Positions 1,418 through 12,642 of a stretch of DNA of 64,000 nt are shown one piece after another. The first letter of the stretch is position 1; every line of letters starts with the position of its first letter. The notes beneath the pieces are model-generated. The model was not told where the DNA came from. It saw only the letters and a program-made list of their open reading frames with translations, and searched no databases. This DNA is from Candidatus Melainabacteria bacterium 17Bon1m (GTDB lineage: Bacteria > Cyanobacteriota > Vampirovibrionia > Obscuribacterales > Obscuribacteraceae), in assembly GCA_032128875.1 (NCBI GenBank), contig JAVLKG010000012.1, positions 32,001 to 96,000 on the forward strand, written 5' to 3'. A program made the position numbers and the translations under genes.

Positions 1418-1539
1418 ATAACGTGCGAGGTTTTGCGAAACTTCGTATAAACAAAAAATGCACAAAACGTTCCGGACTCATTGCGTTTTTCTGAATAGTG
1501 TAGATGGACGCGGTTCATAATTAACAGGAAACACGCCCG

Positions 1540-2703
1540 ATGCCACCCTTTGATGGAAACCTATTGCAAATGCCACCAGGTTTGAACCCGCTTATGGGAG
1601 ACCTAGCCGGAGCTGCTTGGCAGTTGCCGTTTGGCGACAGAATGCCAGGACCCGAGCCATCTCAACTCGCTTTTGGTGACATTTTTCAACAGTTGGGTGT
1701 CGGCAATGCCGGCGATCAAACTCCCGCTCAATTCGAAGATGTATTCAAAAATGCTTCCAATATTGAGTTTAGCTCTCAGGCTCAGAATCAGCGTTCTGGA
1801 AAACAGCCCGACTTCTTTTTGAATGCACAGGGGAAGTTGATCAAAAATCCAAACGCTGAACCACTGCAGCCTGGGCAACCATTGAATATTGAAATACAAG
1901 CGAATGCTGGTGAAGCAACGCCTCAACTTCAAGGCGCCATACAATCAGTACTCGATATCTTCTCCAAGTTTCATCCAAACATTCCGTTCTTCCCCCGCAC
2001 TTGGCAGGAAGTTATGCAATTGCTGGCTCAAGCTGCCGGCGCTGAATCAACTGATAGCGCAGCTGGTGGTGCCGGCTCTATGCAGCGTGCTGCGTATGAC
2101 AGTGGCGCTGGTGGTGGTGGTGGTGGTGGTGGCGGAAGTGGTGGTGGCGGCGGTGGCGGATATGGTGGAGAACAAGGTCTTCAGGGTGGCGGCGGCGGCG
2201 GAGGCGGAGGCTCAGACGCCCCTCCCGCTAATGTAGCCGCAGTGCCCTGGGATGGACAGAGTAAGGGCGACATGAATCTCATGGAGCTCTCTGAACAAGC
2301 GGCTTTACAAGGCCGTCAACTGTGGGCAGAAACTGAATGGGCGAACGTATGCCAGGGAGGCAATGTTGGTTGTGCCGCGTCTGTCTCAAAGATATTGCAA
2401 GAGGGTGGCTACGGCTACGCGGGCGATGCTGCGGTAGTAAACCTCGCAGGCGAACTTGCAGCCAACGGTTGGAGTCAGTCAGACGGTCCTGAATCGGCTC
2501 AGCCTGGCGATGTCATTTACGCCGATGGCGGCGGAGATCGCCAACATATAGGAATTGTAGGTGTTGATGAAAATGGCAATAAAGTCATATACAACAACCA
2601 CTCTTCAACCGGTGTTTGGACCAAAGATCCCTTCAATGCTTGTTCAATAATCACCGATTACAGTCCAGGTCAGGTTCACGTTCTGCACGCCCCTCCGAAA
2701 TAG
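1540..2703 (+). CDS. Protein with poly-Gly linker and C-terminal NlpC/P60-CHAP-like cysteine peptidase domain
   Basis: GCAASVSKIL (catalytic Cys) and QPGDVI...HIGIVG (catalytic His); (GGT)7 at 2110-2130 encodes part of the Gly linker. Confidence 0.7.
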   Translation: MPPFDGNLLQMPPGLNPLMGDLAGAAWQLPFGDRMPGPEPSQLAFGDIFQQLGVGNAGDQTPAQFEDVFKNASNIEFSSQAQNQRSGKQPDFFLNAQGKLIKNPNAEPLQPGQPLNIEIQANAGEATPQLQGAIQSVLDIFSKFHPNIPFFPRTWQEVMQLLAQAAGAESTDSAAGGAGSMQRAAYDSGAGGGGGGGGGSGGGGGGGYGGEQGLQGGGGGGGGGSDAPPANVAAVPWDGQSKGDMNLMELSEQAALQGRQLWAETEWANVCQGGNVGCAASVSKILQEGGYGYAGDAAVVNLAGELAANGWSQSDGPESAQPGDVIYADGGGDRQHIGIVGVDENGNKVIYNNHSSTGVWTKDPFNACSIITDYSPGQVHVLHAPPK

Positions 2704-3722: not shown

Positions 3723-6700
3723 ATGAGACTTACGCTAACTCATAAAGTCGTCATAGCAATCGCAATTCCTGTCATATGTCAGATTGGTCTTTTGTCACTG
3801 TTGCTGCGTTCGGTTGAAAGCCTAGACAATTTAGAGAGGCAAGAGCGAGCGACTTCACGAGTGCTTGAGTGCAAGAAGCAGATTTGCACGGCTGAAGCGC
3901 TGGTTTTTCTCTATTATGCTTTGTATCGTGCTTCTCAAAAACCGGAATACAAGAAAGCGCTGTTACAGACGCAAGAATTGCAAAGGACTGGCTTTAACAA
4001 CCTACGCGTTCTTTGGAAAGGTGACAAGGTAAAGCTGCAAATTTTGCACGACCAGTGGATGGCTGGGATGCAGCAGAGAATTGCGTTTCGATTGACAGCT
4101 GATATGCCACGCGCAGAAAGACTGAGGGATTTCTTTGGTGGGGATATCACTGGGCGAGAAGGTATCTTTTTCAATACTGATCGTGGCAATTTAGGCCGTT
4201 TGTTTGAAGAGCTGGAGCGCTCTCAGTCCCGCCTTCTGCGAGAATCTCAAGAAAGAGAAACCGCAATAAAACAGTCCATCTTGGCAATTTTGTTTGCGTC
4301 TATTTTGATTAGCGTTGGTGCCGGTCTTTTGTTCAGCCGTTCGATTGCTGTTCGGCTCAAAAAAATAGTCGATAACATACATGCTATGGAGACGGAGGAT
4401 GTAGTGCTTGCGCCGGTAGGTGGGCATGATGAGATCGCTGCTCTCAATGATGCAATCATTGATACCAATCGAAAGATCAAAGAAGCCGAGCAGTTTCAAG
4501 CTCAGACTGCGCGCATTGTGGCGCAAGAACTAGAACAGCCTCTCAATCAAATCAATCACTATTTGGAAACGTTGAAGAACAGTGGATTTGATGAGTTGAA
4601 TGCCAATGGCGAAGAGCGCATTGAGCGGTCTTTGTTGGAAGTAACTCGACTGCGAGCGCTGGTAAAAGACCTGATCAGTTTGGACAAGATTAGTCGTATC
4701 GGATGGGAGCTTGAGTTTGTACAGGTCAATCTGAAGGATATTGCGAAAACGGCCGTAGATACAGTTCAAGATTATGCAAATCAGTCAGGAGTTGAGCTGA
4801 TTTCGCGTCTTGATGATGTGCTGATTATTGGTGATCCTTCCCGACTTCAACAGATTGCACTTAATTTGCTGACCAACGCAATCAAGTTTTCGAAGCGAAA
4901 AGCAAAAGTTGAAGTTGAAACAATCAGTGAGAACAATTTTGGCAAACTTTCTGTTGTCGACCATGGAACGGGGATTCCAGAAGAGTTTCAGCAGAAAATT
5001 TTTGGACACTTTGAACAGGCTTCTCACTCTGATGGTGCAGAGAAGGGTGGATCTGGGCTTGGGCTCGCCATCAGCAAAAGGTTGGTTGAATCACAACAAG
5101 GAAGAATGGGATTCAAGTCACAGCTTGGTGAAGGTTCGACGTTCTGGTTTTCTTTACCTCTTGCAGAATTGTCGCCGAATCATGTTTCCAAATTGGAGAA
5201 ACAGCAGGTCGGTCTTCAGCGGCTAAGCATCAAGCCAGATAAGTCGATGGATACCGCTCATGTAACTGATGACTCCACAAGTAAAACTAATTCCAGCAGC
5301 AAGAATGTCTCGAGTAAACGCTATCGTTCAACTTTATGGCGAAATAGCCTTGTCATTGTGCTTCTGCCATTGATTGTTCAGGTAATCACAATTGTGGGTC
5401 TCTGGAATGTAATTAGTTCTATTCGCGGCAATGTCAACGAAATCCACCGCTTCAGTCAAATTACGAGCCTTCATTCCAATCTTCTGGATGCACTAATCCG
5501 TGCGGATGTGTACGCCATCATGTATAACGTTTCACCTTCTAATGTAACTACAACCTACACGGAGCGAAGTCGTTATCTCGTAAGAAGGATTGTTGATCAA
5601 CTCCGTGTCATTTGCGCTTCTGATGCGGTTTTGGCAAGGGACGTCGAGTCTTTGGACAAAATGGTGCAAGAACATATTCAGATCCAAGAAGAGTTCATTA
5701 AGGCGCCATATGATTCTGGCGTCGAACAATTTTTTGGACACAATTCACTTGCTGACACCGAGCGGAAAATGGCGCAACTAGTCATTCCGATTGAGCAAGC
5801 TGCAAAGCAAGAGAAAAAGCTGGTAGAACAGAATGTTTGGGCAAAGACTGATATGCGACAAATCGTTGGCAACATTATTCTGGCTTCCGCGTTGTTTGCG
5901 ATACTCCTTTCAATCGGCTATGGCATCTACACTATTCGTGGATTGACAACGCGTGTGCGCAGGATCGTCGACAACACCAAGCGTCTGGAAGCGCGCGAAC
6001 CCTTGCTGCCAACGTCAGGAAAAGAGGACGAGATCGGGTTTGTTGAGCAGTCGTTTTCAGACGCTGCAACGAAGTTGACCAAGCTTGAGCACTACAAGCA
6101 AGAATTGATAGCCTTGACCTCTCATGAATTTCGTACACCTCTCACCTCACTTCTTGCAAAAGCCGATTTGATGCAGGCAGGAGTTTTTGGCCCGCTAAAC
6201 GCTGATGGGCAGATAGTCGTGGTTAAGCTGAAGAGAAGCATTTCCGACCTGATCGCACTTCTCACGAATTTGCTCGATGTAGAAAAAGTGCAGTCAGGTA
6301 AAAGCTTAGTCGTCAAAAAAGATGTGCAACTGTCGGAAATTTTGAACAAAGCCTTGATGAATGTTAGTGACTCGGTAGAGGAGAAACAGATTGACCTTAA
6401 ACTGCCGCAGGCAGAGGTCAGCATCAATGCCGATGCCACGCGGCTTGTTCAGTCGTTGACGGCCGTGTTGAACGACATTATGCAACATGCTTCTGCTCGA
6501 TCAACAATTTCACTTGAGAGTAAAACTGTTAACAATTGGTTGAATTTGACAATCAACGCACCTGGCGGGGAGTGCAGTAAGGAAGCCTTAAATACGGCGA
6601 GTGCGCGAGGTCGTCTCGCTTCTGACTTGTTACGTCTCATGGTTCAACAACATGGGGGGCGCACTTCAATCGAACCGAGCGATGAACGCTTGGTTGTTCA

Positions 6701-6725
6701 GATAGTTTTGCCCTGCGGTGTTTGA
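3723..6725 (+). CDS. Tandem-duplicated membrane sensor histidine kinase (2x TM-sensor-TM-HAMP-DHp-CA)
   Basis: Module 1 has N box NLLTNAIKFS, G1 DHGTGI and G2 GGSGLGLAIS. Module 2 has H box TSHEFRTPL. Four hydrophobic segments. Confidence 0.9.
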   Translation: MRLTLTHKVVIAIAIPVICQIGLLSLLLRSVESLDNLERQERATSRVLECKKQICTAEALVFLYYALYRASQKPEYKKALLQTQELQRTGFNNLRVLWKGDKVKLQILHDQWMAGMQQRIAFRLTADMPRAERLRDFFGGDITGREGIFFNTDRGNLGRLFEELERSQSRLLRESQERETAIKQSILAILFASILISVGAGLLFSRSIAVRLKKIVDNIHAMETEDVVLAPVGGHDEIAALNDAIIDTNRKIKEAEQFQAQTARIVAQELEQPLNQINHYLETLKNSGFDELNANGEERIERSLLEVTRLRALVKDLISLDKISRIGWELEFVQVNLKDIAKTAVDTVQDYANQSGVELISRLDDVLIIGDPSRLQQIALNLLTNAIKFSKRKAKVEVETISENNFGKLSVVDHGTGIPEEFQQKIFGHFEQASHSDGAEKGGSGLGLAISKRLVESQQGRMGFKSQLGEGSTFWFSLPLAELSPNHVSKLEKQQVGLQRLSIKPDKSMDTAHVTDDSTSKTNSSSKNVSSKRYRSTLWRNSLVIVLLPLIVQVITIVGLWNVISSIRGNVNEIHRFSQITSLHSNLLDALIRADVYAIMYNVSPSNVTTTYTERSRYLVRRIVDQLRVICASDAVLARDVESLDKMVQEHIQIQEEFIKAPYDSGVEQFFGHNSLADTERKMAQLVIPIEQAAKQEKKLVEQNVWAKTDMRQIVGNIILASALFAILLSIGYGIYTIRGLTTRVRRIVDNTKRLEAREPLLPTSGKEDEIGFVEQSFSDAATKLTKLEHYKQELIALTSHEFRTPLTSLLAKADLMQAGVFGPLNADGQIVVVKLKRSISDLIALLTNLLDVEKVQSGKSLVVKKDVQLSEILNKALMNVSDSVEEKQIDLKLPQAEVSINADATRLVQSLTAVLNDIMQHASARSTISLESKTVNNWLNLTINAPGGECSKEALNTASARGRLASDLLRLMVQQHGGRTSIEPSDERLVVQIVLPCGV

Positions 6726-6775
6726 CCGATCAACTGTAGTTTTCGACTAGGATGGTCATCCACGATAAATCCTAG

Positions 6776-7411
6776 CTACCTTTTCTGAAGCCTTTCTGTC
6801 ACCCAGTTTTGTATTCCTTCAACTGTGCCCGCAATGTCTATTGCTGTTGTGTCGAGAATTGTCATTTTTGGCTCTGTTTTCTCGGAATTCTCTTTCAACC
6901 AGTTGTTGAATTCGACCATGTTTTTGAGGTTTTCCTCTGAGCCTGATTGCCGCCAGTGCGGACGGGCCATCAGTCGATTTTTCAATTCTTCCGGCTCGCA
7001 ATAGAGTGACAAATAGTGGATTTTTTCGATGTAACGTCGCTCGTTCAATGTTTCGAATTGTTCGGGAATGGCGCTGCCAAAGAGAACAACTGGACGGCCA
7101 GCTTGATTGATGTTCTTTGCCAATCGCAGCCAAGTATTGCGAAACGCTTTGTAATTGTCGTCCGGCGTGTTGAAAGTTTCGTTCCACAAAATATCCTGGT
7201 CTAGCACGACCACTTCTTTCATCAGTCGTGACAGCTTCAACGCCGCAGTCGTTTTTCCCGATCCGCTGGCGCCAGTGACGATAAAGAGCGGCAGGAGAAC
7301 GAAAGGGCTGCCGTACTGGCAGTGGGGGCAAATAGCAACGGGCGGCACTGGGATGACGTCTTTGTCATCGCTGTACTCTCCGCAACCCGGGCAAACATTG
7401 AACATGGGCAC
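6776..7411 (-). CDS. P-loop small-molecule/nucleoside kinase-like protein with N-terminal Zn ribbon
   Basis: CPGC...CPHC; Walker A GASGSGKT; ELKNRLMAR lid-type motif. Confidence 0.75.
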   Translation of the reverse strand: MPMFNVCPGCGEYSDDKDVIPVPPVAICPHCQYGSPFVLLPLFIVTGASGSGKTTAALKLSRLMKEVVVLDQDILWNETFNTPDDNYKAFRNTWLRLAKNINQAGRPVVLFGSAIPEQFETLNERRYIEKIHYLSLYCEPEELKNRLMARPHWRQSGSEENLKNMVEFNNWLKENSEKTEPKMTILDTTAIDIAGTVEGIQNWVTERLQKR

Positions 7412-7545
7412 CTCCGCGGCAACAGTTGTAGCACGGCTCCTTGTCTGGCGGAGGTTCTAAAGTGTCAATAAATGGAAAAATCCAGTCACTAGATGTGTTT
7501 GCCGGATTCAAAGGGCATAAAATTTAGAGAGGTCAAGGTGTACTT

Positions 7546-8073
7546 ATGGAAACCCAAGAACATCGGCGCCAACTGGTACGACTGCTTCGACTAGCTTATT
7601 CGGGAGAGTTGGCGGCAGCCTTAGCGTACAGCGGGCACTGGCGCTCGCTCAGGGATCCGGAAGAGCGGGCGACGGTGCAAAGAATTGAGCGCGAAGAGCT
7701 CGAGCATCGAGAAACGGTTGGCGAGATGTTGAAGGCTCTGAACGAAAAACCGCTGCTCTGGCGGGAAGCCATGATGTGGACGATCGGGCGAACCGTTGCA
7801 CTTTCGTGTTTCTTGATCGGTTATTTTTTGCCGATGTATTTTGCTGGAAAACTCGAGCACGCCAACGTCATGGAATATGACGGGGCTGCTGAACATGCCA
7901 GCCATCTTGGTTTGGAGCGCTTCATTCCGCAGTTGCATGAGATGTCCAAGACCGAGCGTGAGCACGAAGTTTTCTTCAGCTCGAAGGCTTTGAATCATCC
8001 TTTGCTGCCACTGGTGATAGCAATCTTCCGCTGGGATCCTCACGAAGTTCTCGCCATCGAACCGAAGTCGTAG
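7546..8073 (+). CDS. Ferritin-like di-iron protein (Coq7/demethoxyubiquinone hydroxylase-like)
   Basis: AYSGELAA, EELEH and EREH carboxylate/His ligand spacing. Confidence 0.7.
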   Translation: METQEHRRQLVRLLRLAYSGELAAALAYSGHWRSLRDPEERATVQRIEREELEHRETVGEMLKALNEKPLLWREAMMWTIGRTVALSCFLIGYFLPMYFAGKLEHANVMEYDGAAEHASHLGLERFIPQLHEMSKTEREHEVFFSSKALNHPLLPLVIAIFRWDPHEVLAIEPKS

Positions 8074-8288
8074 CGTGGGGGCGCGTTGCACGCGCCCTTT
8101 TCCTCGTGGTGGCGCGTTGCACGTGCCCTTTCTACTGTAGGGGCGACGCCATGCGTCGCCCGGTTTTGGTTTTCCTTTTGTAAGGGAGCCGCATGCGGCT
8201 CCCTGAGCAGGGGAGGCACATGTGCCTCCCCTACGACTATTTGCACATGTGCCTCCCCTACGACTATTTGCACATGTGCCTCCCCTAC
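8072..8288. repeat. Cluster of REP-like GC-rich palindromes with a 27-bp tandem amplification
   Basis: GGGCGCG-TTGCA-CGCGCCC twice (second copy imperfect); GTAG-GGGCGACGC-CAT-GCGTCGCCC; GTAAGGGAGCCGCATGCGGCTCCCT; AGGGGAGGCACATGTGCCTCCCCTAC. GCACATGTGCCTCCCCTACGACTATTT occurs about 2.7 times at 8216-8288. Confidence 0.85.
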
Positions 8289-8294
8289 AAAGTC

Positions 8295-9560
8295 TTATGC
8301 AATCAGGCAAAGTTCGTCGCTTGTAGTCGAGTCAAATTCGTTGGCGAGTTGGAACTCTTCGTGAATGAGTCTTGCTGCTCTTTGCGCATCTGATTTTTCG
8401 ACCAGGCAAGAGATTGCGAGATCTCCCGTGCGCACTGATTTGACTTCGATGTTGTTAGATTCCAGGCATCCGATTACCTTTACCGATGCTGGCGCGTTGC
8501 CATGCTCGTCGCTGCCCACGAGGGTCACTTTGCAAAGATCCAGTTCGGAGCTGACGCGCACTTCTTTGTCCTTTTCACGAAGCGCCGAAATCGCATCCAG
8601 GACTCTGTCCTGATCTTGATATTGGAAGCAAATCTGGATGGTGGCGCATTTGGCACCATTATCGATTGAGCTGGATTTGCGGATGTTCTCGATAGAGATG
8701 CCGCAATCACTGATGCATTCGGTAACTTCTTTGAGGAGATTGGAACTCTCCTCAGATTTCGAAATTGAGATAAATCCTTGTTTTGAATCTACGGCGACGC
8801 CGCAAAATTGTTTTTGCCTTTCCACTCCGTTTTCTCCTTTGATTTCGGTTCCTCTATTCGAGGGGTTAAACGTATTTCGTACTCGGACGATGACATCGTA
8901 CTGTTCGCCAAGTTCTACAGCGCGTGGGTGAATTACCTGTGCGCCATTTTTTGCAAGCGTTACGCATCGCGCGTATGCGATCTCTTTTAGTGGCACCGCT
9001 TCTTTGATGACGTTTGGGTCCGCAGTGAAAACACCGTCCACATCTGTGTAGATGTCGCATTCTTTTGCGTCTAGCGCAGCTGCGAGTGCGACTGCAGTTG
9101 TGTCAGAGCCGCCTCTTCCGAGCGTTGTGATTTGTCCGCCATCGGTTACGCCCTGGAAGCCAGCGACCACAACCACGTCATTGTCGAATAGTTCGTTCTT
9201 AATCAGTTCGCTATTGATGCCCAAAATTCGAGCTGAGCCGTGATCATCGGTGGTGCTGATTCCGGCTTGTTGTCCAGTGAGAGATTTGGCTGTCAGTCCT
9301 TTTCTCTTGAGGATCAAACTGAGAAGAACGATTGAAACTTGCTCACCTGTCGAAAGAAGCAAATCTAGTTCTCTTTGATCCGGAGTTTTTGTGCATTGCT
9401 TAGCCAGGCTCAAAAGATGATCTGTTGTGTCGCCCATAGCTGATACAACGACAACAACAGGATGTGGCTTGTAGCTTGCGATGATATCGGCGACATGCTC
9501 TATTCGTCCAATGTTTTTCACGGACGAACCGCCGAATTTGAGCACCTTGATTTTGGACAT
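8295..9560 (-). CDS. lysC: Aspartate kinase
   Basis: VLKFGGSSV, VVVSAMG, TTLGRGGSDTTA, TDVDGVFTADP; C-terminal ACT-like region. Confidence 0.95.
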   Translation of the reverse strand: MSKIKVLKFGGSSVKNIGRIEHVADIIASYKPHPVVVVVSAMGDTTDHLLSLAKQCTKTPDQRELDLLLSTGEQVSIVLLSLILKRKGLTAKSLTGQQAGISTTDDHGSARILGINSELIKNELFDNDVVVVAGFQGVTDGGQITTLGRGGSDTTAVALAAALDAKECDIYTDVDGVFTADPNVIKEAVPLKEIAYARCVTLAKNGAQVIHPRAVELGEQYDVIVRVRNTFNPSNRGTEIKGENGVERQKQFCGVAVDSKQGFISISKSEESSNLLKEVTECISDCGISIENIRKSSSIDNGAKCATIQICFQYQDQDRVLDAISALREKDKEVRVSSELDLCKVTLVGSDEHGNAPASVKVIGCLESNNIEVKSVRTGDLAISCLVEKSDAQRAARLIHEEFQLANEFDSTTSDELCLIA

Positions 9561-9573
9561 GATTGACTCCGTT

Positions 9574-10794
9574 CTATGCGGTAACTAATTCTCTATCTTT
9601 CGAAACTGCAAAGCTCTTTGATTTTGGCAACACAGCGTCGAGATCTTTGATCAGGTCGCTGGCTTCTTCAATACCGACGGAAAGTCTGATCAAGCCATCA
9701 ACGATGCCTAGCGGTTCGCGAACTTCTTTCGGAATTGGCGCATGTGTCATTGAGGCGGGATGGCAGATGAGCGATTTGACGCCACCGAGACTTTCTGCAA
9801 GTTGGAACAACTTTGTATTGCTGACTACATCTCTTGCATTTTCCAGTCCACCTTTGACGACGCATGCCACCACTCCACCGAAACCTTTCATTTGTTCGCT
9901 GGCAAGCTGATGCTGCGGGTGGCTCGTCAAGCCTGGATAGAAAACTGACTCCACACCTGGGTGCTGTTCGAGGAAACGTGCAACTGCAAAGGCATTGTTT
10001 TGGTGCTCTTTCATGCGCAGTGCAAGAGTTTTCACCCCTCGAAGCGCCAAGAAGCAATCGAGCGGTCCGGGCACAGCGCCGACAGCGTTATTGTGGAATT
10101 TGAGCACTTCATAGAGTTCATCATTAGAGGTGATGACTGCACCACCGATGATATCGCTGTGACCCGAGATATATTTAGTGGTGCTGTGGATAACAACGTC
10201 GGCACCAAGTTCGATCGGGCGTTGGAAATATGGCGTAGCAAAGGTATTGTCGACCGCGAAAATCAGCCCGCGAGATTTTGTTAGTTCTGCAACTTTTCGC
10301 AGATCTGCCAGGCGCAATAAGGGGTTGGTTGGTGATTCAAGCCAAACTAATTTCGTTTGGGGAGTTATAGCGCGTTCGATGGCATTGATGTCTTTTCCAT
10401 CGATGTAACTGAAGGTGAGACCATATCTGGAAAACACTTTCTCGAATAAGCGGTAAACACCGCCGTAAACGTCCTCTCCGACAATGACGTGATCGCCGGC
10501 GGAGAGAAGGTTTATAACTGTCGCGGCTGCCGACAGACCTGAAGCTGAAGCCAAGCAATATTTAGCGTTTTCCAAAGATGCCAGGCATTCTTCGAGTGCG
10601 CTGCGTGTCGGGTTGTGAGTTCGTGCATATTGATAGCCTTTGTTGACGCCCAGTTCTTCGAGCACGAATGTCGAAGTTTGATAAATGGGCGTGATTAACG
10701 CACCGGTGCTGGGATCGGGCTCCTGACCTTCGTGAATTGCTTTTGTGGCAAAACAGTATTCGGGCGATTCAGTAGTGGATTTGACTTGTGACAT
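9574..10794 (-). CDS. metB: Cystathionine gamma-synthase/lyase (Cys/Met metabolism PLP enzyme)
   Basis: PIYQTSTF, YARTHNPT, ESPTNP, DNTFATP and HSTTKYISGHSD (PLP Lys). GGAGG RBS before ATG 10794. Synthase versus lyase cannot be settled by eye. Confidence 0.85.
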   Translation of the reverse strand: MSQVKSTTESPEYCFATKAIHEGQEPDPSTGALITPIYQTSTFVLEELGVNKGYQYARTHNPTRSALEECLASLENAKYCLASASGLSAAATVINLLSAGDHVIVGEDVYGGVYRLFEKVFSRYGLTFSYIDGKDINAIERAITPQTKLVWLESPTNPLLRLADLRKVAELTKSRGLIFAVDNTFATPYFQRPIELGADVVIHSTTKYISGHSDIIGGAVITSNDELYEVLKFHNNAVGAVPGPLDCFLALRGVKTLALRMKEHQNNAFAVARFLEQHPGVESVFYPGLTSHPQHQLASEQMKGFGGVVACVVKGGLENARDVVSNTKLFQLAESLGGVKSLICHPASMTHAPIPKEVREPLGIVDGLIRLSVGIEEASDLIKDLDAVLPKSKSFAVSKDRELVTA

Positions 10795-10807
10795 TGAAAA
10801 AACCTCC

Positions 10808-10846
10808 AAAACAAAAAGCCCCTCTTCCGCATTCGGAAGAGAGGGC
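10808..10846 (-). terminator. Intrinsic terminator of the attenuator, directly upstream of metB
   Basis: Minus strand GCCCTCTCTTCCG-AATG-CGGAAGAGGGGC followed by TTTTTGTTTT. Confidence 0.9.
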
Positions 10847-10876
10847 ATTGCGACACTTATTCGGCTGAGCTACTTG

Positions 10877-10963
10877 TTAGCTAGACATTCTCACGTGTGG
10901 CAAATGCTCCCCCCTTCCGGAGGGCATCGGCATTACCATAGTGGTGGTCGAGCGATTAAACAT
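10877..10963 (-). CDS. Thr/Met-rich attenuator leader peptide (28 aa, MFNRSTTTMVMPMPSGRGEHLPHVRMSS)
   Basis: ATG 10963 to TAA 10877. Control codons ACC ACC ACT ATG GTA ATG CCG ATG. The ORF overlaps the antiterminator arm. Confidence 0.8.
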   Translation of the reverse strand: MFNRSTTTMVMPMPSGRGEHLPHVRMSS

Positions 10964-10969
10964 GCCCCC

Positions 10970-10997
10970 ATTATGGTTGGATTACAGCAAGAGTCAA
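10970..10997 (-). promoter_or_regulatory. Sigma70-type promoter of the leader-metB-lysC unit
   Basis: TTGACT-N16-CATAAT, then 6 nt, then the leader ATG. Confidence 0.65.
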
Positions 10998-11220
10998 TTT
11001 TTGGCGCCCACTTTGTAACGGGGGCACTTGGCTTAGAGCCGTCTCAGGTGGGTGAAACCTGCAACAGCGCAATGCTTAAGACTGGTATGGCAGAACTGGC
11101 GCGGCTTAACAGAATTGTGCCGATTTCGCCTAATAGATAAAGGTCTTTCTTTGTCCTATATAGCAAGTCACCCTGAATGCCGGAGCCGAGGCACCCTGGC
11201 TGAATAAACCCAGGTGGCAG

Positions 11221-12642
11221 CTAAGAACCTTGCCTCGTCTTCCTGGTCACTACCTTTGCTCCTTCCGTCAAAGTGTCTTGCGGATTCACAACCAATGATT
11301 CGCTTCCATTTAATCCACCGATTACTTCAATGTCGGTGCCAAGATCTTTTCCGAGCTGGAGTTTTTTGAAGTGAACAGTGCCATCTTTTGCCAGCGTTAG
11401 CACACGTTGACCTTCACTGGAAGAAACCAATGAATTCGCTGGAATCAAGAAAGTCTTCGCTGTGACGGGAACAGTGATATTCACGTCCGCGTACATGCCC
11501 GGTGCCAAAAGCATCGCTTTGTTGTCGATGTGAATTTCTGTGCGCATTGTCCGCGCAGCCGGATCGAGTGCAACTGATGTTCGTGCTACGGTGCCGTTGA
11601 ATACGCGGTCGGGAAACTCTTTCAAACTGACTTTTACCGTCTGCCCTGCGCGCACTCCGACAGCAACGTACTGCGGCACATCGATGAAAACTTTCACCGT
11701 ATCTACCCGTGCGACTTTGAAAAGCGAAGTCTTGGAATTTTCGCTTCCGGAAGTGACCAGCATGCCGGTGTCTGCATTGCGCTCCGTGACTATCCCTGTG
11801 AATGGACTGGTGACATTTTGAAATGCTCTTTCAGTACTGCTTCTGGTGGCACGCGCTTTTGATGCCAGTATATTTGCCGCACTCAGGTCTACTGTCGCGC
11901 TCTGGGCTTTCACCTTTGCGCGAGCAGCAATGACATTTGATTCTGCTGCGCTGACTTTATCTAACGCGGCTTGGCGTGCGGCTGTTGTGGTCTTATATCT
12001 GTTTTCCTTTTCATCAACATCTTGCCAGGAAACCGCACCTTGCTCACCAAGACTTTTCCATCTTTGGTATGTCGACAGCGCAAACTTTTGATCGCTCTCC
12101 GCTTCAGTGAGAGATGCTTTTGCTTGTGAAACTTGTGCGATGGCTGCGCTCAAATCTGCCTGTGCGCGATCTCTGTCTGCCTCGCTCTGAGCGCGTGCCG
12201 CCACAGATGTAAGCACTTGCGCTTCAGCCTCGCGCTCGCTAGCTTCTACTTCTGGTGTTTGCAATTTCGCCAGCAACTGACCAGCTTGGACGCGATCGCC
12301 TATATCTACAAATCGCTGCTGCACGTATCCACTACTGCGAGCGTAAATTTCGGCGTCGACAATAGCCTCGATCGTACCCGGCAGATTGAGCTGGTTTGTC
12401 GATGGTGCTGGGCGAACTTGTGTTGTTGAAACAAGCGGCAGCTGCTCAACAATCTTTTTGTGACTCTCGCCTAATTCTTGACCTTGCATAATCCTTGGAA
12501 TCACGCCGATCGGCAGAGCGAGTGACATAACTACTCCGGAGATTCCCAACAACCGCGCAAATCCGGTCTCTTTTCTACCTTCGCGAAAATGCGTCGTAGT
12601 TGAATTTTCTCTTGCTGGTTTTGGAATTGTTTGTTCAACCAT
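11221..12642 (-). CDS. RND efflux periplasmic adaptor (membrane fusion protein)
   Basis: IYARSSGYVQQRFVDIGDRVQAGQLLA lipoyl half-motif, long helical hairpin, TSPFTGIVTER, LAPGMYADV. Confidence 0.92.
   Translation of the reverse strand: MVEQTIPKPARENSTTTHFREGRKETGFARLLGISGVVMSLALPIGVIPRIMQGQELGESHKKIVEQLPLVSTTQVRPAPSTNQLNLPGTIEAIVDAEIYARSSGYVQQRFVDIGDRVQAGQLLAKLQTPEVEASEREAEAQVLTSVAARAQSEADRDRAQADLSAAIAQVSQAKASLTEAESDQKFALSTYQRWKSLGEQGAVSWQDVDEKENRYKTTTAARQAALDKVSAAESNVIAARAKVKAQSATVDLSAANILASKARATRSSTERAFQNVTSPFTGIVTERNADTGMLVTSGSENSKTSLFKVARVDTVKVFIDVPQYVAVGVRAGQTVKVSLKEFPDRVFNGTVARTSVALDPAARTMRTEIHIDNKAMLLAPGMYADVNITVPVTAKTFLIPANSLVSSSEGQRVLTLAKDGTVHFKKLQLGKDLGTDIEVIGGLNGSESLVVNPQDTLTEGAKVVTRKTRQGS

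Follow-up and report, generated by a model that had tools for sequence, protein, structure and literature searches.

The window analysed here is a stretch of 64,000 nucleotides from Candidatus Melainabacteria bacterium 17Bon1m (contig JAVLKG010000012.1, positions 32,001 to 96,000), to which all coordinates refer unless another source is named. Its minus strand carries a metB-like gene followed by a lysC-type aspartate kinase gene, and ahead of metB lies a leader with a promoter, a short upstream open reading frame (uORF) rich in methionine codons, and three RNA helices that compete for the same strands, the last of them an intrinsic terminator (Table 1). All leader elements and both genes are on the minus strand. 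The leader very probably controls metB-lysC by ribosome-mediated attenuation of transcription, of the trp/thr type, in which translation of a leaderless leader peptide senses methionine. An earlier note, made from the letters of the window alone, had proposed such an attenuator with combined control by threonine and methionine.

Table 1. Features of the metB-lysC leader and operon, and loci of the hypothetical protein found behind related leaders in other orders of the class
Feature	Position	Strand	Basis and remarks
-35 box TTGACT	10992..10997	-	Sequence and consensus scan; followed by a 16-nt spacer
-10 box CATAAT	10970..10975	-	Sequence and consensus scan; followed by 6 nt, GGGGGC
uORF start codon ATG	10961..10963	-	6 nt past the -10 box; no Shine-Dalgarno sequence fits there
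Leader ORF, 28 codons including stop, peptide MFNRSTTTMVMPMPSGRGEHLPHVRMSS	10877..10963	-	ORF list and translation
Thr codons 6-8 (ACC ACC ACT)	10940..10948	-	Sequence; sensing role putative only
Regulatory Met cluster ATG-GTA-ATG-CCG-ATG, codons 9-13	10925..10939	-	Sequence and the ATG-NNN-ATG-NNN-ATG columns of alignment A2
Region 1, 5' arm of the protector (anti-antiterminator) hairpin, overlapping the Met codons	10919..10938	-	Folding and covariation
Region 2, G-rich 3' arm of the protector, also 5' arm of the antiterminator	10895..10918	-	Folding and covariation
Region 3, 3' arm of the antiterminator, including the terminator 5' arm	10834..10856	-	Folding and covariation
Intrinsic terminator hairpin (regions 3:4)	10818..10846	-	Folding, -22.0 kcal/mol; consensus scan
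U-tract TTTTTGTTTT	10808..10817	-	Sequence
Shine-Dalgarno sequence GGAGG of metB	10803..10807	-	8 nt upstream of the ATG at 10794
metB-like Cys/Met-metabolism pyridoxal-phosphate enzyme, 406 aa	9574..10794	-	PF01053, 2.9e-149; NF005871, 506.6 bits
lysC-type aspartate kinase, 421 aa, last gene of the operon	8295..9560	-	NF005154, 384.8 bits (cut-off 376)
Hypothetical protein, other order	L176:1169-2464	-	
Hypothetical protein, other order	L177:372-2078	+	
Hypothetical protein, other order	L183, downstream of 1501-1635	-	

The promoter described in the earlier note, with its ATG 6 nt past the -10 box, is present, and an independent consensus scan of positions 6500-11300 ranked it best among five promoter-like sites (10/12 matches). 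The 28-codon frame encoding Thr-Thr-Thr-Met-Val-Met-Pro-Met was likewise recovered, with three Met codons within five codons. Folding reproduced all three helices that the note had placed before the metB ribosome-binding site. The protector was placed at nt 36-61 of the predicted transcript; in its full extent nt 26-45 (which hold the three Met codons) pair with nt 50-66, the extended hairpin reaching -17.9 kcal/mol. In the antiterminator, nt 45-69 pair with nt 108-130; this helix exists as claimed, but at about 22 pairs, including ACAC/GUGU and GC, it is larger than the 16 pairs given before. The terminator occupies nt 118-146, is followed by UUUUUGUUUU, and was also reported by the independent scan as a hairpin at 10844-10819 with its T-tract. 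The anatomy of an attenuator is complete: a leader ORF, a cluster of cognate codons, a terminator, an antiterminator sharing strands with it, and a protector lying over the regulatory codons.

Homologues of the leader were sought with two covariance models, R1 for the 'off' state and R2 for the 'on' state; the genomes sampled across all searches numbered 453. R1, applied to the order at E <= 0.01, matched 59 of 107 genomes, 19 of 38 genera and 21 of 39 high-quality genomes; by family, there were matches in 58 of 103 genomes of the window's family (the window's own genome not counted) and in none of three genomes of a second family. The element occurs once per genome, except for one genome with two copies (G092), and the window's own genome holds a single copy (R1, E = 5.4e-27). 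R2 matched all 60 places found with R1, as well as 28 of the 151 genomes in a class sample and three of the 151 in a phylum sample, the latter all inside the class; it matched none of 99 genomes from 27 further families. For alignment, the 62 matches (the 60 places plus two duplicate loci) gave 53 distinct sequences.

Regarding the genes behind these leaders, the first downstream gene was metB or metB-like at 58 of the 60 places (57 with 65-100% identity, one with 43%), and the element stood directly before lysC at the other two. Within 400 nt of the metB-like gene, lysC followed in 51 of the 58 cases, and five of the remaining seven had flanks too short to tell. Orthologous metB loci in relatives carry the same promoter, an ATG lacking a Shine-Dalgarno sequence and a Met-rich frame. 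Only four of the 60 loci retain the RND-adaptor gene that lies upstream of the leader in the window; with this neighbour so rarely kept, the element goes with metB rather than with the gene before it. A search with filters off at 17 loci where the metB-like gene is another one, mostly a paralogue after a different upstream ORF, gave no match at E <= 0.01.

The start of the leader frame is closely tied to the promoter. The distance from the -10 box to the ATG is 6 nt in 26 and 7 nt in 27 of the 53 distinct copies. The -10 box reads CATAAT in 35 of them, GATAAT in 17 and TATCAT in one; 45 copies have a -35 box of the form TTGAC[AT] or TTGCAA at a distance of 16-17 nt from it, and one more has TTGCAT at 18 nt. 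With 6-7 nt of spacing the predicted transcription start falls on the A of the ATG, which leaves no room for a Shine-Dalgarno sequence, and the uORF transcript is therefore predicted to be leaderless, its 5' end being read from the -10 spacing. Every one of the 53 copies has an ORF of 22-34 codons, and in every one the Met cluster is in frame with the ATG, with no stop between them, although the first internal Met varies in position between codons 5 and 15.

Across residues 2-16 of the 38 distinct N-termini the share of Met is 24.7%, compared with 2.2% in the genome's ORFs of at least 300 aa, and among the 46 distinct peptides MxMxM occurs in 39 and MxM in 45. Enrichment of other residues is far lower: 1.8-fold for Thr (9.6% vs 5.3%), 1.9-fold for Ser (13.3% vs 6.9%) and 2.4-fold for Asn (9.5% vs 3.9%), and Thr is missing from seven of the 38 N-termini. 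The methionine part of the control by Thr and Met proposed in the earlier note stood up to these comparisons; the threonine part found no support in them. A separate N-terminal motif, M-x-N-R-[A/S]-T, was seen in codons 2-6 of alignment A2 (Asn3 in 37, Arg4 in 27 and Thr6 in 28 of the 46 peptides); it has no obvious regulatory meaning, but might have a role in leaderless initiation or as part of the initially transcribed sequence.

The three helices are conserved along with the frame. Terminators of -14.2 kcal/mol or lower and protectors of -8.8 kcal/mol or lower are found in all 53 distinct copies. When the 3' arm of the terminator was removed, the lowest-energy fold paired region 2 with the terminator 5' arm (15-24 pairs) in 47 of the 53, and every one of the 53 had a duplex of regions 2 and 3 stronger than that formed with a shuffled region 2 (z between -2.2 and -5.6). 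As MAFFT alone lost the helix register in divergent copies, covariance-model alignments were used to study compensatory change. For the protector (alignment A2), 79.3% of cells are paired, vs 45.6-55.3% with slid partners; ten of the 16 pairs have changed on both sides, in 64 cells compared with 27.0 +/- 6.7 after shuffling (0/500 shuffles reach this value). For the antiterminator (alignment A3, which was fitted to the antiterminator structure, so that its counts are biased toward that structure), 74.6% of cells are paired, vs 47.7-60.5% with slid partners, and 17 of the 21 pairs have changed on both sides, in 133 cells compared with 71.2 +/- 8.3 (0/500). Because the aligned sequences are related to each other, the shuffle figures of both alignments are not probabilities. 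As read from these alignments, both alternative helices carry compensatory changes. The check proposed in the earlier note, a uORF conserved in relatives together with compensatory changes, thus came out in favour of its ribosome-mediated attenuation of metB-lysC from a leaderless uORF, as did the fixed promoter spacing and a link to metB or lysC at all 60 places.

Outside the family, 11 class-level matches and one further genome of the phylum sample (G315) were inspected. Five of the 11 (L178-L182) were partial matches to the terminator only, had no Met-rich frame and were dropped as false positives. The other six and G315 have a Met-rich frame followed by a terminator, with a Shine-Dalgarno sequence rather than a leaderless start, and the alternative pairing of regions 2 and 3 is present in truncated folds of six of these seven variants. 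Three genomes of one genus (g17; L173, L174 and L175) carry a frame of the type ..TMMMCMMMPMP.. before an O-acetylhomoserine sulfhydrylase of the MetY type (TIGR01326, 634.9 bits, cut-off 495.1); the start of this uORF is probably led by a Shine-Dalgarno sequence and may be GTG. Two tandem leaders with Shine-Dalgarno sequences, with the cores TMMMTMTMPS and TMTMTMTMTMAM and a terminator each, were found in G028 (L172, G028:C76, minus strand, ~280-972). They precede a 109-aa protein which ends in GG and bears a weak resemblance, below cut-offs, to the SAMP1/MoaD/Urm1 sulfur carriers; this genome may use a protein-thiocarboxylate route of methionine synthesis that is doubly attenuated. In G219, G315 and G179 (two other families), the gene behind frames such as TMMMQMMMMQ encodes a hypothetical protein of 432-569 aa. 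Neither Pfam nor NCBIfam has a match for it, the Atlas clusters nearest to it come solely from Melainabacteria, and it is a candidate for a methionine-related function. That one kind of leader precedes different methionine-related genes speaks for its specificity, by the reasoning usual in comparative work.

The attenuator would work as follows. RNA polymerase would start at the A of the uORF AUG, and a ribosome would initiate straight on the 5' end of the RNA. While Met-tRNA(Met) is plentiful, the ribosome would pass the Met cluster and region 2; after its passage region 1 would re-pair with region 2 to form the protector hairpin, region 3 would stay free for region 4, and the resulting terminator would stop transcription in the U-tract before metB. 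If charged tRNA(Met) runs short, stalling on the Met codons (best on Met11 in the window) would leave the ribosome covering region 1, upon which regions 2 and 3 would form the antiterminator, the terminator would be blocked and metB-lysC would be transcribed. If the uORF were not translated at all, the protector would form first, which makes termination the default state.

Equilibrium folding of leaders under a stalled ribosome gave a hint in the same direction. In this model the RNA was masked to 12 nt past the A-site codon, an assumed footprint, and the probability (P) of the terminator was determined. For the window's leader, Met11 in the A site was the one position at which P fell to 0.01; P was 0.73-0.81 at Met9 and Val10, 0.67-0.77 from Pro12 to Ser15, and at least 0.96 at Thr6-8 and all remaining positions. 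Two further leaders (L131 and L137) behaved like that of the window, and two (L127 and L155) could not be used as the automatic step picked the terminator wrongly. The earlier note had suggested folding under a constraint over the control codons: a ribosome on Met11 opens the terminator as it had anticipated, whereas one on the Thr codons does not.

Other sensors of the methionine pathway were sought at the locus and in the genome. The earlier note had advised an Rfam scan to exclude S-adenosylmethionine (SAM) riboswitches and T-boxes, and at the leader no SAM-riboswitch or T-box model matched, nor did any Rfam leader family (Thr_leader, Trp_leader, His_leader, Leu_leader and others). The only hit between 10500 and 11400 at E <= 10 was isrC on the opposite strand (E = 3.3, 15.8 bits against a gathering score of 39). 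The genome, which is 93% complete, gave no SAM-I or SAM-IV riboswitch in searches whose controls matched as expected.

Several points weigh against the attenuator as proposed. We infer the transcription start, the translation of the uORF, the stalling and the response to methionine from the sequence. Since Met is also the initiator, severe methionine starvation would cut initiation at a leaderless AUG and favour termination, which complicates the response. The terminator wins at every ribosome position of the stall scan in L129 (P at least 0.97) and L144 (at least 0.69), so that the proposed switch has to rely on kinetic, co-transcriptional competition. In six of the 53 copies the truncated transcript has another lowest-energy fold than the antiterminator, and the antiterminator's covariation counts carry the bias of A3 noted above. 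As a single sequence the window's leader folds unexceptionally (z = -1.72; 11 of 200 shuffles fold equally well or better); that the element exceeds chance follows from conservation and covariation in relatives, not from the fold energy of one sequence. One genus (g26; L152, L155, L158, L160, L162 and L164) has the leader before metB-lysC with only one or two internal Met residues in a Lys/Arg-rich frame (..NKRKMQMRKPS..), and its specificity may be weakened or shifted. No R1 match was found in 48 of the 107 genomes of the order, some of which are incomplete while others apparently hold the paralogue only. A crude positional scan for long ORFs with a -10 box 6-7 nt ahead of them gave no clear signal of leaderless genes genome-wide, codon periodicity dominating. 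Finally, the search for SAM-II riboswitches carries no weight, as its control matched 0 control genomes.

Among the other explanations, dual sensing of threonine and methionine in the window's genus survives best and is possible, though on balance rather unlikely. Stalling on Thr6-8 would also open the protector, making the operon responsive to threonine and methionine alike as end products of the aspartokinase branch. In the window's genus and in one other genus (L151) the Met cluster comes straight after a run of three Thr codons, Thr6 is as frequent as given above, and the aspartate kinase of the operon also feeds threonine synthesis. Against this, the enrichment of Thr is only like that of Ser and Asn, and some N-termini are free of Thr; Thr6 is part of the conserved MxNR[AS]T, whose Asn and Arg lack regulatory meaning, so that its conservation may have another cause; and in the stall scan a ribosome on Thr6-8 leaves the terminator in place. 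The genome moreover has five aspartokinase-like loci, including the metB-linked one, which can for this reason be an isozyme serving methionine alone.

It is very improbable that the RNA works without translation, as a metabolite riboswitch or as the target of a TRAP-like protein bound to spaced AUG triplets, with the frame incidental. TRAP-like proteins do bind spaced triplet repeats, and AUG-NNN-AUG-NNN-AUG is such a repeat. The AUG repeats are nevertheless in frame with the start ATG at varying distance and without an intervening stop in 53 of 53 copies, that ATG keeps its fixed distance of 6-7 nt from the -10 box, and the Met-rich frames of other orders carry Shine-Dalgarno sequences instead; nor was any conserved structure resembling a ligand pocket seen besides the three switching helices, or any Rfam family matched.

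Marginally less credible still is an arrest peptide, in which the nascent MxMxMPS(G/A)(R/G)G would stall the ribosome in response to free methionine or SAM. Arrest peptides of this kind have precedents in TnaC for tryptophan and in the MTO1 region of plant CGS1 for SAM, and the peptide core M-x-M-P-S-G-R-G is conserved, with MPS in 22 of the 46 distinct peptides. The codons of PS(G/A)(R/G)G are, however, the protector stem-loop itself (CCCUCC-loop-GGGGGG), and the variants FPARE and APVARE keep the base pairing; arrest by abundant methionine or SAM would also turn the operon on when its product is plentiful, the wrong direction for a biosynthetic operon. A chance arrangement, or simply the terminator of the upstream RND-adaptor gene beside an unrelated promoter, would fit the promoter-like sites of 6500-11300 (5 vs 3.5 +/- 2.3 in shuffled sequence), the terminator-like sites (12 vs 6.6 +/- 2.3) and the ordinary fold energy, but is refuted by the comparative data: the element travels with metB or lysC at 60 of 60 places and with the upstream gene at four, it is a single, highly significant occurrence in its own genome, and two alternative helices covary.

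The probable methionine attenuator is placed before an operon of two genes; as a convergent plus-strand gene comes after lysC, the operon consists of leader, metB and lysC. The metB-like product is closest to cystathionine gamma-synthase, with an NF005871 score just below the cut-off of 513. An in-frame ATG at 10846-10848 (minus strand) lies inside the terminator stem and extends the mechanically called metB ORF to 424 aa (9574..10848). The Shine-Dalgarno sequence and the orthologues indicate that the real start is 10794 and not 10848. The metBL operon of Escherichia coli joins metB to an aspartokinase gene (metL) by the same logic. Upstream of the four other aspartokinase-like genes (C3, C2 and C7 of the genome; regions inspected) no leader peptide was seen.

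A second metB-like paralogue in the genome (59% identity; G000:C11:14132-15331) has a counterpart in relatives that follows another ORF and has no leader. Genome-wide scans for more leaderless leader peptides gave the known element and noise only. The genome scan for more Met-rich uORFs with terminators yielded 18 candidates and no further leader: one was the known element, four were inspected and 13 were judged by their listed translations alone. The four inspected proved to be out-of-frame readings of GAT/GAC-rich stretches or other coding sequence. Apart from the leader, a GC-rich palindrome, GGGGGCGC-TTGCA-GCGCCC followed by Ts, was seen at several gene ends (8111-8127 on the plus strand of the window, C3 ~745,900, C4 ~124,170 and C6 ~271,950); it has the look of a terminator-like repeat of this genome.

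Feedback control of methionine biosynthesis is exerted elsewhere by MetJ repression, SAM riboswitches and methionine T-boxes. The leader has the same job as these systems (including MetJ control of E. coli metBL) and differs from them in its proposed sensor, the speed of the ribosome on Met codons, that is, the charging of tRNA(Met). The mechanism is classical. With the enterobacterial attenuators (trp, thr, his, leu, pheA, ilv) it shares an ORF of cognate codons, the 1:2, 2:3 and 3:4 helices, the terminator and the coupling of transcription to translation; it differs in the amino acid sensed, in a uORF that lacks a Shine-Dalgarno sequence and begins at the predicted transcription start, in its occurrence in Vampirovibrionia (Cyanobacteriota), and in having no sequence or Rfam relationship to them.

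Methionine-type and leaderless leader peptides both have precedents. In Campylobacter jejuni, a short RNA before metBA contains MetL, a 20-aa uORF with three Met codons proposed as a leader peptide (PMC3847290), and the accessible text of another study describes translation-initiation peaks at MetL and a second Met-rich uORF before a methionine transporter gene (PMC11955535). The likeness, a Met-codon leader proposed to attenuate a metB-containing operon, is functional only, and an analysis of alternative helices or covariation is not reported in the available part of the source (PMC3847290). In Streptomyces lividans, a leaderless 'metL' before metNIQ, a short ORF with Met and Thr upstream of a methionine-related operon, has been annotated as an attenuator; according to the accessible part of the report its termination is unclear and a typical Rho-independent terminator is missing (PMC8079986). 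It differs from the leader of the window in its single, Met-poor C-terminal motif, in its transporter operon and, as far as the same part goes, in having no comparative support (PMC8079986). The accessible sections on Deinococcus deserti, with 14 predicted leaderless leader peptides (PMC4007540), and on mycobacteria, with poly-Cys leaderless uORFs (bioRxiv 10.1101/834739), describe leaders in which transcription likewise starts on the first codon of a regulatory uORF with many cognate residues, in other phyla and for other amino acids. The available portion of the survey by Naville and Gautheret mentions no methionine leader (PMC2965389). In keeping with the earlier note, which knew of no such case in the presumed lineage, the literature searched, which left most subscription journals outside, contained no description of leader-peptide attenuation in Melainabacteria (including Obscuribacter), also among papers on cyanobacteria.

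The leader defines a new family of cis-regulatory leaders, supported by covariation and outside Rfam, in a sister lineage of the cyanobacteria whose members are uncultured and non-photosynthetic. Methionine leader peptides have so far been annotation-level proposals, judging from the accessible parts of the Campylobacter and Streptomyces reports, whereas here the switch, the Met cluster and the gene link are kept across 19 genera, which places this leader among the better-supported methionine attenuators for experimental testing. For annotation, metB need not be over-extended to the ATG at 10848, the metB-linked aspartokinase can be marked as a Met-dedicated isozyme, and a protein family of the lineage without known function can be flagged as probably methionine-related.

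More tentatively, and with the odds at present against the whole of it, the leader may form the core of a class-wide methionine regulon of the Vampirovibrionia, which would read tRNA charging in place of SAM riboswitches, give a two-phase response and, in the window's genus, add co-sensing of threonine. If this holds, the 432-569-aa protein known only from Melainabacteria would represent a new methionine-related function, for example in uptake or salvage. The leaderless AUG of the Obscuribacteraceae would let initiation (through fMet-tRNA) and elongation (through Met-tRNA) both report on the methionine pool, and the Thr run in the window's genus would add threonine co-sensing for a methionine-linked aspartokinase isozyme.

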